Under the pieces are notes generated by a model. The model made no database searches. It saw only the letters and a program-made list of their open reading frames with translations, and was not told where the DNA came from. Shown one piece after another: positions 9,140 through 49,784 of a stretch of 64,000 bases of DNA. The first letter of the stretch is position 1. Each line of letters starts with the position of its first letter. The translations under genes and the position numbers were made by a program. The DNA comes from Escherichia phage BEU44. Location: sequence record OM632670.1; one strand, 5' to 3'.

Positions 9140-9966
9140 TTAAATGCCTTTTGGATTGCTTCATGGACTTGTTCGGGCGTAGCGTAGTTTGGAATCTCAA
9201 TCTCGTTAGCCCACGTTGGGTAGAATAAGGAGAGTTCCCCACCCAAATGAACATCTGGATGAGCAATATCAGGATGGTCTTGCCATTGTACTGCTTTCAC
9301 CAAATGAGTATTGGTATATATCACAACATCCATATCATCACGGATAAGGAAATACTGAGCATCATGGATATGGGTACTTGGACGAATATCAAGACGATGC
9401 TTACTATTCCGCACCATACGCATGAACTCTGAACCAGCACGGTTATTCAGAAGACACCAACTTTGGCCTAATGCATTACCAGCAGTACGTCCTTCAGCTT
9501 CAGCTTCATAAGGAGTTTTACTGGTTCCACGGATAACTTGTTGAAGTAAGGGGGTTCTGACTCTCAGGCCAAATGCTACGGTTACATAACCATCTTTTGC
9601 AGCTTGGTCTAGTTTAGCCTGAACCCAGTCATCACTTACCTTATAAAGTGTGTGATAACGTTCTTCAACCATTCGAGCTTTCTGTTCAGAGAAACCACAG
9701 TTCTTCATCAAAGTGATGTATGTGCCCTGATAGGTAAGAGCAAAGGTAGGTGCTTTAGAATCCTGACGATATGCTTTGTACTTCTCCTGAATAGAATTAA
9801 CAGACTCTACCGTATCTTCAATGTCAGGCATCATCTCACCGAAGTAAGCATATGCACGAAGACTATGCCCATCGTAACCTGATGAACTCCCAGCTTTGAC
9901 TACGTTGTCAATTTTCTTGCCAGTGAAGTCATGAGTTGATTTTGGCAAGCTGTCGTAAAGCAACAT
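9136..9966 (-). CDS. DNA polymerase family A, C-terminal fragment (fingers motif B and palm motif C)
   Basis: 276 aa; ATG at 9964-9966 with AGGAG upstream; YDGHSLRAYAYFG (pre-O-helix), RQDSKAPTFALTYQG (motif B), THIHDA (motif C-like). Confidence 0.7.
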   Translation of the reverse strand: MLLYDSLPKSTHDFTGKKIDNVVKAGSSSGYDGHSLRAYAYFGEMMPDIEDTVESVNSIQEKYKAYRQDSKAPTFALTYQGTYITLMKNCGFSEQKARMVEERYHTLYKVSDDWVQAKLDQAAKDGYVTVAFGLRVRTPLLQQVIRGTSKTPYEAEAEGRTAGNALGQSWCLLNNRAGSEFMRMVRNSKHRLDIRPSTHIHDAQYFLIRDDMDVVIYTNTHLVKAVQWQDHPDIAHPDVHLGGELSLFYPTWANEIEIPNYATPEQVHEAIQKAFK

Positions 9967-31642: not shown

Positions 31643-32029
31643 TTAGAAAGTCAGTTTACGAGCATATTTATTCTCACTTGCTGAGATAGCAGGAGCTTCT
31701 TCTTTAACTCGACGAAGTTGAACTTGCAGTGAGATAACTCCTTCCTGACCTGGTTCCAGAGTCTTAGCAAATTCCATCAGTTGGTCTAACAAATCGTTCT
31801 GTGCACAACGCATTGCACGGAAGTCTTCGTTAGAGGAATTGGTTGGCAGATGCTCCTGAGTATCCAGTGGAATACCAGTAGGCAGAGAGATGAAACGTTC
31901 ATCTTCAGTGCCTTCATTAGCTACATAGCCAACGTTAATCCAGAACTGAGCTTTCGGGCGAGAACCATTGTTGGATTCAGTTTTAGTAGAAGCCTGACCA
32001 AAGGTTTTAGCAAAAGTAGTGATAGCCAT
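31643..32029 (-). CDS. early protein (128 aa), second gene from inferred left end
   Basis: ATG at 32027-32029 with GGAGAG SD; longest ORF starts TTG at 32140 inside the promoter hairpin. Confidence 0.45.
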
Positions 32030-32136
32030 TTTGTACTCTCCAGATAGTTGATTTTGATTAGTTGAGACTACTTTGTCGGTAAGTAATCCCAGACAAAAGG
32101 TTAAGATTTCATACAGGATTGGATGCATTACTTCAT

Positions 32137-32157
32137 CCAAAAGAAGCGGAGCTTCTT
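32137..32157 (-). promoter_or_regulatory. hairpin promoter of N4 virion-RNAP type (P2-like)
   Basis: catccaaaagaagcggagcttctt: 7-bp stem aagaagc/gcttctt (32141-32147, 32151-32157), loop gga; matches the N4 P2 promoter sequence as I recall it; predicted +1 near 32138 for leftward transcription. Confidence 0.65.
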
Positions 32158-32197
32158 ATCTTTAAAGTAGATAGTTATTGAACTATCGGTTCTATGT

Positions 32198-32221
32198 AAA
32201 AGGAGACTCCGAGGAGCCTCC
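32198..32221 (-). terminator. putative intrinsic terminator
   Basis: Minus transcript ggaggcuccucggagucucc followed by uuuu (plus A-run 32198-32201); lies between gene ending 32234 and promoter at 32137. Confidence 0.45.
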
Positions 32222-32233
32222 ATTTGTTTGTTA

Positions 32234-32560
32234 TTATTTAGAGTCTGCTAAGATTTTGCTAAGACGGTCATAGGCATTAGAGAACAATTCTTTGTTTTGT
32301 TCATCTTTGCAGAAGTCTAAGATTTGTTTCTGACGAATAGCTTCTTGCATTGCAGTTTCTTCAATAAGTTTATTGGTAAACTCATGCATTTCTAATTTGT
32401 CACGAATGATTTGTTTATCTGCTTGTTTAGTTACATAACGATTAAGCATACCTACTGCTTTAGTAGCAGTACCGAATGTATCAGCTACAGTAGTTGCTGC
32501 TTCATTAACAGTACCCAACAGAGTTCCTACAGTCATACGAACGTTAGCCTGAGTAGTCAT
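32234..32560 (-). CDS. early protein (108 aa), first gene from inferred left end
   Basis: ATG at 32558-32560 with GGAGG SD; longest ORF starts TTG at 32623 inside the promoter hairpin. Confidence 0.45.
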   Translation of the reverse strand: MTTQANVRMTVGTLLGTVNEAATTVADTFGTATKAVGMLNRYVTKQADKQIIRDKLEMHEFTNKLIEETAMQEAIRQKQILDFCKDEQNKELFSNAYDRLSKILADSK

Positions 32561-32605
32561 AGTATTAGCCTCCAATAGTTGATTGATAAGATACGGACAA
32601 CATGT

Positions 32606-32624
32606 CCATAAGTTGCGAAGCAAC
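32606..32624 (-). promoter_or_regulatory. hairpin promoter of N4 virion-RNAP type (P1-like)
   Basis: ccataag + stem gttgc/gcaac (32612-32616, 32620-32624) with loop gaa; same spacing and CCA..AAG element as the other two; 47 nt upstream of ATG at 32560. Confidence 0.55.
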
Positions 32625-32673
32625 GTGTAACGTGTACAAGGTGGGGTAGGCTAAGGCTACACTAGTAAAGACC

Positions 32674-32681
32674 GGGGGGGG
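32674..32681. repeat. G8 homopolymer tract in ORF-free G-rich region
   Basis: accgggggggg at 32671-32681 within otherwise AT-rich genome; near acgtgta and aggcta tandem duplications. Confidence 0.5.
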
Positions 32682-32927
32682 TGCTTATGGTGTAAGGGGT
32701 GTAGCCCCACCAAATACTAAACTCACAAGTAACTATGACTATTTTCACTAAGAAAAAAATTATAGGGTATCTATCTAATAGACTTCCTATTTATCTCTTA
32801 TAAATACTAACAACTTCATACAACTTACCTTCTATAAGAATAGGATGACCTACTTCTATGAAGGCCAGGCTATCTATCATCACTGGTTCGGATAAACCTT
32901 TAACTGTTATATACCACATAGCTTTCC

Positions 32928-33293
32928 TTATTTATAAGCAGATAACTTTGAAGTCTCTCTGAAGTAGAAAGTAACTGCATGATTAAAGTGATTCTGTTCT
33001 ACCACTGGTTCAAAGCCTTTTGGTGCCAGGAAGTAAATGACTTCGTTATTCCATGCATTAGTAGGTATTGCCACTTTCTTCCTTGGTTCAAGAAGAATGG
33101 TACTAATGTCTTTACCTTCTAAGAACCAGTTACCTAGTAGAGCATGGGTATCATCCGATTCAGGTAAGTAAAGAGGTTTGGTATTACCACACATAGCATG
33201 GAATAGATTGGTGGAACCACAGTGAAATAGAGCAGGTTTGTTTGTAGTGTACTCTAGGTTGATACCATAGACTTCATTAGGACGAATGTTCAT
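32928..33293 (-). CDS. hypothetical protein (121 aa)
   Basis: ATG at 33291-33293. Confidence 0.35.
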   Translation of the reverse strand: MNIRPNEVYGINLEYTTNKPALFHCGSTNLFHAMCGNTKPLYLPESDDTHALLGNWFLEGKDISTILLEPRKKVAIPTNAWNNEVIYFLAPKGFEPVVEQNHFNHAVTFYFRETSKLSAYK

Positions 33294-33312
33294 ATAGAAC
33301 TCCTTGGTTCAT

Positions 33313-33340
33313 AAAAGAAAAAGGGAGCCAAATGGCTCCC
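33313..33340 (-). terminator. intrinsic terminator
   Basis: 7-bp stem gggagcc/ggctccc (33323-33329, 33334-33340), loop aaat, preceded on plus by aaaagaaaaa = U-run on minus transcript. Confidence 0.55.
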
Positions 33341-33503
33341 AATTCCTATACCGAGTGTGTTTGTTAAATCAGTTCTCTCTGATACTACTCATCACCCAAT
33401 GGCAGATAACAAAGGTGTCTTGGAGATAGGTGAATGTAGCTGAAGTGGTTATTCAAACAGTTCCCTGTTTCCCGCCACCAACTCCTGGGCGGGCAATGGC
33501 TTA

Positions 33504-33845
33504 TCAAGCAACCACGGTCATCTCGATGGCGTCACGCTGTCGTTTGATAGAGATACTTTGAGGTATTCTTGTAAAGAATGCAAGACCCTCGATAGGCTTG
33601 GTAATGACACGTACTGGTGCAGGTTTATGGACAGTAAACCCAGTGACGTTATTGATTAACATCATACCTGAGATGTAATGGAAAGACTCCTCATCGTGAC
33701 ATAAGATATGGTCACCTGGTATAGCCCCTCCAACTGGGATAGCTCCACCTATTTTACTGAAGTCTATCTCATTCCATTGGTCATTACCGTCAAAACTATA
33801 GAATAGCCTCATGTTACTGGTTCCTTTGGGCAATAGGCTCCCCAT
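33504..33845 (-). CDS. hypothetical protein (113 aa)
   Basis: ATG at 33843-33845; divergent from late operon. Confidence 0.35.
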   Translation of the reverse strand: MGSLLPKGTSNMRLFYSFDGNDQWNEIDFSKIGGAIPVGGAIPGDHILCHDEESFHYISGMMLINNVTGFTVHKPAPVRVITKPIEGLAFFTRIPQSISIKRQRDAIEMTVVA

Positions 33846-33972
33846 GTCTCTGTCTTACTATTGTAAGGAGACTAAAGAAAGTCTAAAGTCTAAATCTATG
33901 TATAGGTTTCTGCAAGGGGTGCTAACCCCAAGAAAAGAATCCTCTTCACTCTAGATAATTTGTAGGAAGACT

Positions 33973-34665
33973 ATGAGCACACTACTGACTAAGAAAGACA
34001 TTGTTTCTGCATTGCCTCCCCAGTTTAAAAGCAGTGTTACTGACCAACTGGTAAACATGATTAACAATGTGACCCAAGACCAGACAGCAGCAGAGCAAAT
34101 TAGAAATAACTTTGTGACTTATGCTGGGGTGATGAAGGATGGGAAGTTTAAGACCCAGGATTATCTTAATGCTGTTCAATATGTTACTTACAAACACATG
34201 GGGTATAGTAACAAAGATGCTTATTTCAAAACATTCCCCAACAGACAAGCTGAATTAGTAGCAAGAGGAACCAGTGAGAAGGACATCTCTGCTTATGTAT
34301 CTGCTTACCATAGAGGTAAGTTAGTAAACCTCATTATGGAACAATCACTGATTCCAGTATGGATTGTTAATCAGGATTTGTTTCAGGAAGCATTGAACCA
34401 TCAGGCATGGCTCATGAAGAATGCTACCAGTGAGAAGGTACAGTGTGATGCTGCCAACTCTATCCTTACTCACCTCCAGAAACCGAAGGATGCTGTTACT
34501 AATATCAATCTGGATTTGAGAGAAAACTCTGGATTGACTGAACTCAAGAATACACTAACCCAGTTGGCTGAAGCTCAGAAAGCAGCTATTGAAGCTGGTA
34601 CACCTACTAAAGTAATTGCAGGTTCCACACTGGTTCGAGAAGACGAGGATATTATTGATGTCTGA
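33973..34665 (+). CDS. hypothetical protein, candidate terminase small subunit by position
   Basis: 230 aa; ATG at 33973 with AGGAAG SD; immediately upstream of and overlapping terminase large subunit. Confidence 0.3.
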   Translation: MSTLLTKKDIVSALPPQFKSSVTDQLVNMINNVTQDQTAAEQIRNNFVTYAGVMKDGKFKTQDYLNAVQYVTYKHMGYSNKDAYFKTFPNRQAELVARGTSEKDISAYVSAYHRGKLVNLIMEQSLIPVWIVNQDLFQEALNHQAWLMKNATSEKVQCDAANSILTHLQKPKDAVTNINLDLRENSGLTELKNTLTQLAEAQKAAIEAGTPTKVIAGSTLVREDEDIIDV

Positions 34666-36250
34666 ACTAATTAAACAGGAGTTGGATGAATGGCTAGACC
34701 AAGTGGACTATTCCGTTCTGAATACCCCTACGTATATACCAACCGAGTTTGCACTGACCTTTGCTAACTTTATTAAGCTGGTTAATGGTAAGGAGGGGGA
34801 ATCAAACAAAACCCCTCCTGTTCACTTAAAAATGCTGGATAAGATAACCAGTAAGAATCAGTACATTGCTAACTTATGTTTCCGTGGTGCAGCAAAGACA
34901 ACTCTGTTCATGGAATACTTTACTTTGTTCTTAGCAGTGTTTGGGCATCTACCTAGCTTGGGTAAAGTAGAAGGAATGATTTATGTGTCTGACTCTATGG
35001 ATAACGGTGTTAAGTCTGCCCGTAAGAACATTGAGTTTCGATACAACAATTCACCATTCCTGCAACAATGGATTCCTAAAGCTACCTTCACAGATAACTA
35101 CCTTGAGTTTGTAAATGCTGAAGGTCACCGTCTTGGTGTGAAGATGTTTGGTGCTAAGACGGGTCTTCGCGGTACTAAGATTTTTGGTAAACGTCCTGTT
35201 CTGTGTGTACTGGATGACTTAGTTAGTGATGATGATGCTCGCTCACGTACATCAATGGAAGCCATTAAAGACACGGTATATAAGGGTGTGAACCATGCTC
35301 TCGACCCAACAAGACGTAAGGTAATCTTTAATGGTACTCCCTTTAATAAGGAAGATATTCTTATTGAAGCAGTTGAATCCGGTGCTTGGGATGTCAACGT
35401 ATGGCCTGTATGTGAGAAATTCCCATGTACGCGAGAAGAATTTCAAGGTGCTTGGGAAGACCGTTTCTCCTATGACTACATCAATGACCAATACCAGATG
35501 GCATTGAAGACAGGTAAGCTGGCATCCTTTTATCAGGAATTGATGTTACGTATCAGCTCTGAAGATGAACGTCTGATTCAAGATTCAGAGATTAAATGGT
35601 ATTCCCGTACGCAGCTATTACGTCTACGTTCTTGTTATAACTTTTATATCACTACTGACTTTGCTACTAGTGAGAAGCAGGTATCTGACTACTCTGTAAT
35701 ATCAGTATGGGCATATGGTTCTAACGGTGACTGGTTCTGGGTAGATGGTATTGCTTGCCGTCAAACTATGGATAAGAACTTTGATGACTTATTCCGTCTG
35801 GTTCAGGAATACCAACCACAACAAGTTGGTGTAGAAACTACCGGACAGCAAGGTGGTTTTATTTCTCTTCTTCAGAAGGAAATGCTTAACCGTAATGTGT
35901 TCTTTAACTTTGCATCCAGTCGTGGAGGCCAACCGGGTATTCATCCTGTAACCAGTAAGCTATCAAGGTTTAACCTCGTGGTTCCCTGGTTCAAAGCTGG
36001 TAAGATGTATTTTCCTGCTGAGATGAAAGATAGCCCAATCATGACACTCTTTATGGGGCAAATTCGTTTAGCCACTATCAATGGTCTTAAAGGTAAGGAT
36101 GACTGTATTGATACCATTTCAATGCTTGGCTACCTGAACCCGTGGAAACCACAAGCAGGTATGGTTCCAGTTAATACATCAGGTGACCCATTGTGGGATG
36201 ATGGTGATGATACTGGAAGTGTTAACCCACTCTCTTCATATATTGTGTGA
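34658..36250 (+). CDS. terL: terminase large subunit
   Basis: Walker A-like FRGAAKTT, Walker B-like VLCVLDDLVSDDD, C-terminal nuclease-like region; ATG at 34658 with GAGGA SD (longest ORF starts TTG 34616). Confidence 0.65.
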   Translation: MSELIKQELDEWLDQVDYSVLNTPTYIPTEFALTFANFIKLVNGKEGESNKTPPVHLKMLDKITSKNQYIANLCFRGAAKTTLFMEYFTLFLAVFGHLPSLGKVEGMIYVSDSMDNGVKSARKNIEFRYNNSPFLQQWIPKATFTDNYLEFVNAEGHRLGVKMFGAKTGLRGTKIFGKRPVLCVLDDLVSDDDARSRTSMEAIKDTVYKGVNHALDPTRRKVIFNGTPFNKEDILIEAVESGAWDVNVWPVCEKFPCTREEFQGAWEDRFSYDYINDQYQMALKTGKLASFYQELMLRISSEDERLIQDSEIKWYSRTQLLRLRSCYNFYITTDFATSEKQVSDYSVISVWAYGSNGDWFWVDGIACRQTMDKNFDDLFRLVQEYQPQQVGVETTGQQGGFISLLQKEMLNRNVFFNFASSRGGQPGIHPVTSKLSRFNLVVPWFKAGKMYFPAEMKDSPIMTLFMGQIRLATINGLKGKDDCIDTISMLGYLNPWKPQAGMVPVNTSGDPLWDDGDDTGSVNPLSSYIV

Positions 36251-48541: not shown

Positions 48542-48566
48542 TTAATCCTAACTCGGAGATACTCCC

Positions 48567-49784
48567 ATGACTACGGAAGCTGCAAAAACAGCTTCCGACA
48601 TTTTTAAAATGTCGGATGAAGAGATTCTGAACATGCCTGGTCCATCAAGCATTCAGAACAACCCGGAACCGGTAGAAAATAATACTCCTGCACAACCAGA
48701 CCCAATTGTTGAAGTTGAACAAACTGATGAACCAGAAGTAACTACTGAACCAACTGAAGTAGAAAATACTTCTGAATCAGAAAGCAATTCAGATGCATTC
48801 ACAACTGGTAATGATAGTGCTACAGTTGACCCAAATAAGGTTGACAGCAACAGTAAGCCTGCTACTGATAATGCACCTTCTACTACTGAGCAAGGCCAAG
48901 CAAAAGTAGAAGAAGACAAGCAGGTATCAGACCAGAAAACTGACTTCGACTATAAGGCTGGTTATGAACGGATAATGGCTCCGTTTAAAGCTAACGGCAA
49001 AATGATTACTCCTCAAAGTCCTGAAGAGGTCATTAGCCTGATGCAAATGGGAGCTAACTATACCCGTAAAATGCAGGAGATTCAGCCGTATCGTAAGTAT
49101 CTCCTGATGTTAGAAAACAACGGATTATTAGATGAAGGGCAACTCTCTTATGCTATCGATTTAGTTAAAGGGAATCCTGATGCTATTAAGAAGTTGGTTA
49201 AAGAATCTGGTATTGATGTTCTGGATATTAATCCGGAAGAGGAAGTTAAATACCAAGCTGGTAATCACCGTGTGTCAGATGCTGAAGCAGCATTTGCAAC
49301 CGAACTGGAAGATGCTAAATCCACTCCAGAAGGACAAGCTACTCTTCAGTTAATTTCGACTACGTGGGATGACCACAGCAAACAGGCATTGCTGGAAAAT
49401 CGTGGTCTGGTTAATACCATCGTTGAACAGAAAGCTAACGGTATTTACGACCGTATTGTTTCTGAAATTGAACGACTCAAAATCTTAGGCCAAATCCCAA
49501 TCGGTACAGCATTCCTGGATGCTTATAATCAAGTCGGTAACTACCTTGCTGCTAATGGTGGTTTTAATGATTTGATTAAGCAGAAACCTGTTGAACAACC
49601 TAAACCAGTGGTTCAGCCAGTAGCAACTCGTGTTGCAACTCCTAAGTCTGAAATCACTAATACTCAACAGGCAGCAGCGGCATCCCCATCACGGGTTACA
49701 CCGCGTAAGACAGAAGTCCTTGTTAATCCTCTTGCAATGAGTGACGAGGACTTTATGAAACTACCTCGGCTGAACGGCCTATAA
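48567..49784 (+). CDS. hypothetical protein with acidic N-terminal region, candidate scaffolding protein
   Basis: 405 aa; Glu/Thr/Pro-rich acidic N-terminus; immediately upstream of capsid gene. Confidence 0.35.
   Translation: MTTEAAKTASDIFKMSDEEILNMPGPSSIQNNPEPVENNTPAQPDPIVEVEQTDEPEVTTEPTEVENTSESESNSDAFTTGNDSATVDPNKVDSNSKPATDNAPSTTEQGQAKVEEDKQVSDQKTDFDYKAGYERIMAPFKANGKMITPQSPEEVISLMQMGANYTRKMQEIQPYRKYLLMLENNGLLDEGQLSYAIDLVKGNPDAIKKLVKESGIDVLDINPEEEVKYQAGNHRVSDAEAAFATELEDAKSTPEGQATLQLISTTWDDHSKQALLENRGLVNTIVEQKANGIYDRIVSEIERLKILGQIPIGTAFLDAYNQVGNYLAANGGFNDLIKQKPVEQPKPVVQPVATRVATPKSEITNTQQAAAASPSRVTPRKTEVLVNPLAMSDEDFMKLPRLNGL

Follow-up and report, generated by a model that had tools for sequence, protein, structure and literature searches.

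The gap between genes gp70 and gp69 of Escherichia phage BEU44, which lies within the 64,000-nucleotide stretch of record OM632670.1 that we analysed (the window), is on balance probably a compact divergent control region with a bidirectional promoter core of the sigma-70 type. In the arrangement that we propose, a plus-strand promoter (TTGTAA, 17 bp, TAAAGT) would start transcription near position 33896 and, through a leader of ~77 nt, serve gp69, gp68 and the structural genes, and a minus-strand promoter (TTGCAG, 17 bp, TAGACT) would start near 33880 and serve gp70-72, with a second putative gp70-ward site (TTTAGA, 16 bp, TACAAT) just inside it. The predicted polymerase sites overlap almost completely, so only one polymerase could occupy the region at a time. 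Before late activation, the promoter could serve gp70-72; because the two sites overlap, N4SSB driving the late direction would then shut the gp70 direction by polymerase competition, a simple mechanical switch that, if the reading is true, would silence gp70-72 without an extra repressor. The transcription starts, the polymerase used and the switch are all predicted here from the sequence, conservation, spacing, uniqueness and orientation of the signals described below, and "late promoter" is likewise a label that we infer.

N4 is the textbook phage that uses three RNA polymerases in turn, and how the host polymerase is aimed at its late genes is poorly defined at the DNA level. The conserved block described below is a precise target of ~60 bp at the head of the terminase/structural operon, with clear candidate bases. 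Around the gap, a 2-kb stretch matched BEU5, BEU13 and BEU14 at 100% identity and coliphage N4 at 98.3%. The window itself is an N4-type coliphage genome (Enquatrovirus), presented as the reverse complement of the N4 map. In the N4 and Jura annotation, one side of the gap carries gp70, which points rightward on the N4 map and is on the minus strand here; the other carries gp69 (small terminase) and then gp68 (large terminase), which open the late region ahead of the structural genes.

An earlier note on this DNA had singled out a tandem 7-mer and a GC hairpin in the gap, which it took to be 127 bp long with the minus-strand start codon at 33845. The start of gp70 is more likely ATG 33812, because the N4 and Jura annotation places it there, an AAGGAA sequence stands 8 nt upstream (33821-33826) and the counterpart of the upstream extension in Achromobacter phage Axy13 meets a stop codon; the gp70 open reading frame (ORF) is open back to ATG 33845, but this codon lacks a Shine-Dalgarno sequence. 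On this annotation and these Shine-Dalgarno positions, the intergenic region therefore spans 33813-33972 on both strands, 160 bp rather than 127. The plus-strand start at 33973 (gp69) was as the earlier note had given it, with AGGAAG before it at 33964-33969.

A conserved non-coding block in the gp70/gp69 gap

A sensitive search with 231 bp around the gap as the query identified a non-coding block of 75 bp (33819-33893, both strands) that is present in a single copy in the window and has the tandem 7-mers at its end. The block was 92% identical over 75 bp in unannotated DNA of Pseudomonas phage inbricus and Achromobacter phage Axy13, two members of Inbricusvirus, which belongs to another subfamily than N4. 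When the whole window was compared with the whole Axy13 genome, the block was the segment of highest identity, with gene regions at 65-75%, and the proteins encoded on its two sides were 38% (gp70) and 73% (gp69) identical between this phage and Inbricusvirus. The block was also found in Kaypoctavirus (KP8), Jwalphavirus (JWAlpha, JWDelta), Dongdastvirus (phiAxp-3), Pourcelvirus (Axy10) and Philippevirus, in a weaker version in Gamaleyavirus (G7C-like) and in further copies in several IMG/VR contigs. It recurs in at least 8 lineages, and its position is constant, in the divergent gap that heads the late operon. Across distant N4-like phages, these comparisons show the block to be better conserved than its two neighbouring genes. 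It is also a practical landmark for orienting and annotating N4-like genomes.

Two parts of the block were invariant across the eight-genus alignment, namely AATAGG (33832-33837), which forms part of the heptamer (C/G)AATAGG (33831-33837, both strands) inside the predicted gp70 leader, and CTAAAGTNTAA (33883-33893). The genera that share the invariant 7-mer core infect gamma- and betaproteobacteria. Both TAAAGT(C/G)TA and GTCTA-NN-GTCTA occur only once in 64 kb. A pattern scan of viral contigs for AATAGG-N(35-65)-CTAAAGTNTAA gave 3 real instances among the 120 matches listed, the rest being chance, and fetching relatives of gp69 was the more productive way of obtaining more lineages.

The block did not behave like coding sequence, in that substitutions were non-synonymous in the plus frame and the minus frame was stopped in Axy13. 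Neither the plus-strand ORF of 47 aa (33811-33954) nor the 11-codon extension of gp70 was conserved as coding sequence. A tRNA, suspected from the 92% identity over 75 bp, was rejected, with ARAGORN reporting 0 genes in the window, as was a known structured RNA, with an Rfam E-value search of 32000-35000 giving chance-level matches only and none in the gap. Recent horizontal transfer was discarded as the main explanation of the block, since many genera carry it with graded divergence. The second most conserved short stretch relative to Axy13 lies elsewhere, at 48554-48635 (84.7% over 85 aligned positions), and covers a short gap and the first codons of a 405-aa gene upstream of the major capsid gene.

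The tandem 7-mers AGTCTAA AGTCTAA (33880-33893) and the hairpin GGGGT GCTA ACCCC (33916-33929) were both present at the positions and with the letters first reported. Exact tandem 7-mers were observed 2 times in the window, compared with 3.6 +/- 1.9 in simulated sequence, and perfect 5-bp GC-rich hairpins 28 times, compared with 9.9 +/- 3.0 expected; with 28 such hairpins in the window, a single one is unremarkable. Neither motif stands out by frequency alone, and it is conservation across genera that lifts the region above chance. The other exact tandem 7-mer of the window, AACGTGT AACGTGT (32622-32635), adjoins the first early promoter hairpin.

Predicted promoters on both strands overlap within the tandem 7-mers

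We aligned 13 lineages without gaps, anchored on the core. This alignment conserves TTG at -22 to -20, G-N-CTAAAGTCTA, and CAA at +30 to +32, which is TTG on the minus strand. On the plus strand of the window, the predicted -35 element TTGTAA (33861-33866) and -10 element TAAAGT (33884-33889) would form the late-operon promoter, with a predicted start at about 33894-33898; in a frequency-matrix scan, this site scored 9.3 bits, at the 99.96th percentile of window positions. On the minus strand, TTGCAG (33915-33910) and TAGACT (33892-33887), separated by 17 bp, would form promoter 1, with a predicted start at about 33878-33882 and a score of 9.6 bits (99.97th percentile). The second minus-strand promoter-like site (33887-33860), which consists of TTTAGA (33887-33882), 16 bp and TACAAT (33865-33860), scored 8.8 bits, so that all three sites were at or above the 99.94th percentile of the window, although TACAAT is less well conserved, reading TACAAC in Axy13. 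The plus- and minus-strand -10 hexamers overlap by 3 bp within the tandem 7-mers, which form the core of the element on both strands. The minus-strand TAGACT had been overlooked in the earlier note, as had the leftward extension of the block to 33819 and the inverted repeat over the -35 element that is described below.

Orthologous sites scored 7-12 bits at a spacing of exactly 17 bp in 11/13 lineages on the plus strand and in 10/13 on the minus strand, and this spacing held even where the surrounding sequence was unalignable between subfamilies. On the plus side, the TTG, its 17-bp distance from TAAAGT and a leader of 30-90 nt were all kept in 11/13 lineages, and the first plus-strand gene, with a Shine-Dalgarno sequence and ATG, began 30-90 nt after the core in all 13 forward lineages. 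The TTG of the minus-strand -35 element was found at 17 bp in eight of the 13 forward lineages and at 16 bp in the lineage L167; the sequence around it is unalignable between the two subfamilies. Among the 16 lineages examined, the minus-strand -10 was retained as TAnnnT in all 16 and the plus-strand TAAAGT in 14. No conserved leader hairpin was found across lineages.

The plus-strand site has the sequence features of a sigma-70-type promoter, in that its -10 hexamer has A as the second and T as the sixth base and TTGnnn stands 17 bp upstream, inside the range of 16-18 bp, and the region as a whole resembles a bidirectional promoter in carrying -10 elements of opposite strands within one short region, both with TTG at 17 bp. 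The earlier note had offered either a binding site or a late promoter/activator region as its interpretation. The promoter part of this proposal is supported for the tandem 7-mers, which contain TAAAGT with TTGTAA 17 bp upstream, whereas the GC hairpin falls outside the family-wide core.

Several observations weigh against a bidirectional promoter core. The promoter matrix is unspecific, with 130 sites of at least 8.2 bits in 64 kb, most of them inside genes; a matrix score is weak on its own, and what gives it weight here is that the hexamers and their spacing are conserved. Two lineages, L141 (TAAAGG) and L143 (TAAAGC), have lost the plus-strand T at -7. The predicted starts at ~33896 and ~33880 are 16 bp apart, rather than 18, 10 or 23 bp, and a search of the literature for transcript 5' ends of N4 or close relatives found none. 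The core motif occurs once per genome, hence it is not a shared late-promoter signature, and it is missing from LUZ7, where the gap between gp69 and ORF87 measures 68 bp. Identity of 92% over 75 bp exceeds what a promoter, or a pair of promoters, needs, and the model leaves a set of invariant non-consensus bases unexplained, namely G33888, C33890, the CTA after the -10 element, the upstream CTAAAG copy and CAATAGG. Finally, a group of contigs in which the block is inverted has poor -35 elements in both directions. Should the promoter reading fail, this would still be the non-coding DNA with the highest conservation in these genomes, and some other explanation would be called for.

An inverted repeat spans the plus-strand -35 element

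An interrupted inverted repeat, GTCTC-TGT-CTTAC-TATT-GTAAG-GAGAC (33846-33872, both strands), overlaps the plus-strand -35 element and the -10 element of the second minus-strand site. In 7 distinct sequences, pairing was kept in 84% of cells, compared with 41-53% in slid controls, and two inner pairs had changed on both sides, in the sequence L138 (T-A to A-T) and in Axy10. This covariation gives modest support, coming from few sequences, and the same pattern would be produced by an RNA hairpin, a DNA hairpin or a palindromic protein site. The repeat could be either an operator over the late -35 element or a 5' stem-loop of a gp70 leader starting near 33880.

In an alternative reading, the whole block would be mainly an RNA element, a 5' leader of gp70 (or of the gene on that side) made from the minus-strand promoter, in which a stem-loop (33872-33846) and a CCUAUUG box control stability or translation, with the plus-strand signals being secondary. 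The left two thirds of the block do lie between the predicted minus-strand start and the Shine-Dalgarno sequence of gp70, the stem carries compensatory changes, and a minus-strand fold of the segment reached z = -2.5. Moreover, in the contigs with an inverted block, the same left part separates the core from the beginning of the late-operon gene, again as a leader, and it is the minus-strand -10 that is retained as TAnnnT in every lineage, with the plus-strand -10 failing in two. However, no Rfam family matched, the fold z-scores were modest and inconsistent between lineages, and palindromic operators yield the same covariation. The plus-strand TTG was also kept at a fixed spacing where the rest of the block had diverged. 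We consider an RNA element unlikely as the main function of the block, and it overlaps with the bidirectional promoter core instead of excluding it.

Inversion of the block and possible functions beyond an ordinary promoter pair

An in-place inversion of the block was seen in three environmental contigs that are related (L144, L148 and L149), where the inverted block precedes the same gene family that follows the block in Axy13, JWAlpha, Axy10 and the lineages L160 and L141. Such an inversion should be tolerable for an element that is active in both directions, but not for a one-way promoter unless a different one stepped in.

Two further features of these gene neighborhoods were observed. Most lineages outside Enquatrovirinae carry an extra homologous gene (~150-310 aa) between the block and the gp69 homolog (L003, 1870-2568; L009, 1316-1783; L011, 1325-1810; L160, 1641-2450; L149, 1672-2454), which is lacking in N4, KP8 and the G7C-like phages. 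In the contigs with an inverted block, the plus-type -10 element faces ~340 nt without an ORF of at least 50 aa (L149, 1250-1610; L144, 1-520, minus strand); this stretch has segments conserved between L144 and L149, such as CTATGGTTGCTCCGCAA, and may encode a non-coding transcript.

A more far-reaching proposal, which we regard as rather unlikely, is that the 75-bp block is a single-copy master control element of the Schitoviridae that is recognised sequence-specifically by a conserved phage factor, sets the switch of transcription between rightward (middle/right-end) and leftward (late) and might tie it to replication or packaging. If true, this would explain both the invariant non-consensus bases across phages of gamma- and betaproteobacteria and the survival of the inversion, and it would be the first sequence-level definition of what sets the N4SSB-dependent late promoter apart.

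As another alternative, the block could act in cis in DNA replication or packaging, as a transcription-activated origin or a recognition site for the small terminase, with the hexamers being incidental or auxiliary. Such a site would fit a single-copy element whose conservation is above that of any gene-length stretch and which is tolerated in either orientation. It would also fit the CTAAAG direct repeats at 11-bp and 7-bp spacing, the adjoining small terminase gene, the distance of ~1.2 kb from the physical genome end and the likeness of the nearby GC hairpin to nt 4-19 of the N4 left end. However, the conserved positions match a promoter geometry (TTG-17 bp-TAnnnT) on both strands, the distance to the next start codon is leader-like, and neither an AT-rich unwinding stretch nor an iterated array is present. 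The fine GC-skew profile was too noisy at this scale to be informative, and in the accessible literature neither an origin nor a packaging site of N4 is placed here. Such a site seems improbable to us, and we retain the bidirectional promoter core as the preferred reading.

The GC hairpin is lineage-specific and has relatives on one strand

The GC hairpin (33916-33929, both strands) is embedded in conserved flanks (33910-33945). Across Enquatrovirus and Gamaleyavirus, the stem GGGGT/ACCCC is constant and the loop varies (GCTA, AACTC, AACCC, ATCTC or ATATC). In the KP8 group, the hairpin is down to 3 bp, with the flanks TTCTTCAAGG ... CCCAAGAAAAGAATC still conserved, and nothing comparable to the hairpin was found in Rothmandenesvirinae. 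By its distribution in these sequences, the hairpin is lineage-specific and lies outside the family-wide core.

Read on the minus strand, the hairpin forms part of a 21-mer, TTCTTGGGGTTANNACCCCTT, that recurs twice in the window, at 24710-24730 (TTCTTGGGGTTAATGACCCTT on the minus strand, 2 mismatches) and at 23639-23659 (TTCCTGGGGCTACTACACCTT on the minus strand, 3 mismatches), compared with 0.00 copies expected. All of the copies are on the strand of early/middle sense. Both extra copies (b and c) lie 20-40 nt before intrinsic terminators in the early part of the middle region, the one at 24710 between the gp18 stop codon and the terminator. A direct motif search located TTGGGGTTATAAACCCT at position 9793 of St11Ph5 (L191, 9793-9809), after a gp18-like gene, which makes it the positional counterpart of the 24710 copy; BLAST for copy b beyond the genus gave matches within Enquatrovirus only. 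The likeness that had been noted between the hairpin and an element at 32694-32709 is real, with AGGGGT-N(2-8)-CCCCA occurring at these two places only in the window (0.09 expected), for a pattern that was picked after both copies had been seen. In the N4 record, the element at 32694-32709 is nt 4-19, at the genome's physical left end; the left ends of St11Ph5 and KP8 have it in conserved form.

The genome-wide motif search that had been proposed as a check on the hairpin thus gave copies above chance, and the hairpin seems to belong to a small strand-specific family. The strand bias of the copies fits a role in the gp70 direction better than that of a late activator site and, together with the position of the hairpin just upstream of the minus-strand -35 element, suggests that the hairpin may serve the gp70 direction rather than the late operon. 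In the proposed arrangement, it would be a lineage-specific accessory, most likely acting on the minus strand upstream of the gp70-ward promoter.

Two other roles for the hairpin were rejected. As the earlier note had recognised, it is not an intrinsic terminator: neither strand has a T-run after 33916-33929, our scan placed terminators at 33323-33340 and 32202-32221 only, and a terminator between divergent starts would make no sense. Nor is it a promoter for the virion RNA polymerase, having a 4-nt loop (GCTA) and no GCGnAGC heptamer.

The strand bias also raises the possibility that a phage polymerase is used, with the core or the GC hairpin acting as a middle promoter of N4 RNA polymerase II for gp70-72, in the manner of the GC-hairpin middle promoters of LUZ7. 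CTAAAG resembles the -7 to -1 part of a T3-type single-subunit polymerase promoter. The hairpin 21-mer recurs on the early/middle-sense strand only, far above expectation, and St11Ph5 has a counterpart of the 24710 copy at the corresponding position. The right-end genes of LUZ7 belong to the middle stage, and its middle promoters take the form of GC-rich hairpins located ~15 bp upstream of the start (PMC9163698). However, the promoter reported for N4 RNA polymerase II is minimal and AT-rich, runs from -7 to +2 and is present in many copies, with mapped sites in the left half of the genome only (PMC4496689). The core motif is unique in the window and therefore not a reused polymerase promoter, and no similar motif was found in intergenic spaces of the middle region. 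As for the hairpin, it has a stem of 5 bp and a loop of 4 nt, compared with a stem of at least 6 bp and a loop of 3-4 nt in LUZ7-type middle promoters; copies b and c stand 20-40 nt before terminators, which would be odd for promoters, and the hairpin is missing in KP8 and Rothmandenesvirinae. We therefore doubt strongly that a phage polymerase acts here.

Finally, the features first flagged might be largely incidental, with the 7-mer duplication being no more than the spelling of two -10-like hexamers and the GC hairpin having no function of its own. The frequencies of tandem 7-mers and 5-bp GC hairpins are indeed equal or close to chance, no covariation was seen in the hairpin stem, the KP8 group loses the hairpin and keeps its flanks, and leader folding is not conserved across lineages. 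Against this stand the invariance of the 7-mer core across genera on gamma- and betaproteobacteria, the maintenance of the hairpin stem through five loop variants and the recurrence of the extended 21-mer well above chance, which together leave this explanation very improbable in our estimation.

Genome end, early promoters and gp70

Nucleotide 1 of N4 maps to 32712 in the window and nucleotide 70153 to 32713; since these adjoin, the assembly is circularly permuted and a physical genome end lies inside the window. The N4 physical ends fall at 32689-32713, with the terminal repeat collapsed in the assembly. The first 24 nt of N4, TGGTGGGGCTACACCCCTTACACC on the minus strand, include the aaggggtg..cccca element, and the records of St11Ph5 and KP8 begin with the same end motif. 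At ~30 nt from the left end, N4, St11Ph5, KP8 and Axy13 have a run of 7-9 C (G on the plus strand of the window); it is at 32671-32685 in the window and at about nt 28-45 in L184, L185, L186 and L007. The run here is 1 base shorter than in the N4 record and is followed by GGT, as in St11Ph5, KP8 and Axy13, where the N4 record has TGT.

Three hairpins on the plus (template) strand of the window fit the published description of virion-polymerase promoters and the KP8 promoter table, namely GTTGC GAA GCAAC (32612-32624), AAGAAGC GGA GCTTCTT (32141-32157) and GCTGC GGA GCAGC (~28150-28170). Annotation papers for N4-like phages list such early hairpin promoters only.

We also considered gp70 itself as a DNA-binding regulator of the block and set this candidate aside, as gp70 has no Pfam match and belongs to a PHROG family of no known function. 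A word-indexed search for gp70 homologs returned N4 gp70 alone, and a single-sequence AlphaFold model of the protein reached a pLDDT of 48.5.

Relation to known promoter systems

The kind of element that we propose is ordinary and already known. In the literature searched, which did not extend to the primary paper on N4 late promoters, we found no description of this member or of its conservation across subfamilies, and N4's own promoter here may already be mapped. The N4 late genes are transcribed by the sigma-70 polymerase of the host, which N4SSB activates (Cho, Choi and Rothman-Denes 1995, as cited in PMC4496689), from promoters that match the consensus only weakly (PMC4496689, PMC9163698), and activation by N4SSB is reported to be independent of its DNA-binding activity (PMC4496689). 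The plus-strand site described here belongs to the same type of phage, occupies the same place, the head of the leftward late region on the N4 map, and is a weak-to-moderate sigma-70 match (4/6 and 4/6 at 17-bp spacing). It differs from a general late-promoter signature in that its extended motif is unique in the genome. In LUZ7, late promoters resemble sigma-70 promoters, and the same study describes late promoters as undefined in that phage group (PMC9163698).

Bidirectional sigma-70 promoters of Escherichia coli share a -10 region, and strong activation in one direction represses the other by polymerase competition (PMC12825309). The gap resembles these promoters (Warman, Grainger; PMC12825309) in its pair of opposite-strand -10 elements within a short region between divergent genes, where binding of polymerase would be expected to be mutually exclusive and activation of one direction to repress the other. 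The start spacings in E. coli are mostly 18, 10 or 23 bp, with small variations allowed (PMC12825309), unlike the 16 bp predicted here. The hexamers in the gap overlap by 3 bp rather than sharing the A(-11)/T(-7) pair, both directions have a good -35 element, and divergent transcription is a prediction from sequence.

The GC hairpin shares with P1-P3, the promoters of virion RNA polymerase in N4, that these are short GC-containing DNA hairpins of the same genome. Unlike it, P1-P3 have a stem of 5-7 bp, a 3-nt purine loop within a GC(G/A)(G/A)AGC heptamer centred at -11, and conserved flanks. In the T7 A1 promoter (PMC5660091), the 17-bp spacer opens with TAAAGTCTAACC, which is the 12-mer of the Achromobacter phages and agrees with the start of the N4 core at 10/10 bases (33884-33895). 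In T7 A1, however, TAAAGTCTAACC belongs to the spacer that separates TTGACT from GATACT and does not form a -10 element, and the match is probably a coincidence.

The switch of phage phi29 (promoters A2c/A2b and A3, protein p4; PMC4496689) differs from the proposed arrangement in that its promoters are separate and p4 binds specific DNA sites; we identified no p4-like binding sites in the gap. The two systems are alike in placing divergent promoters of different temporal classes in a short intergenic region, and in that activation by a phage protein of a weak late promoter of the host polymerase goes, or here would go, with repression of early transcription.

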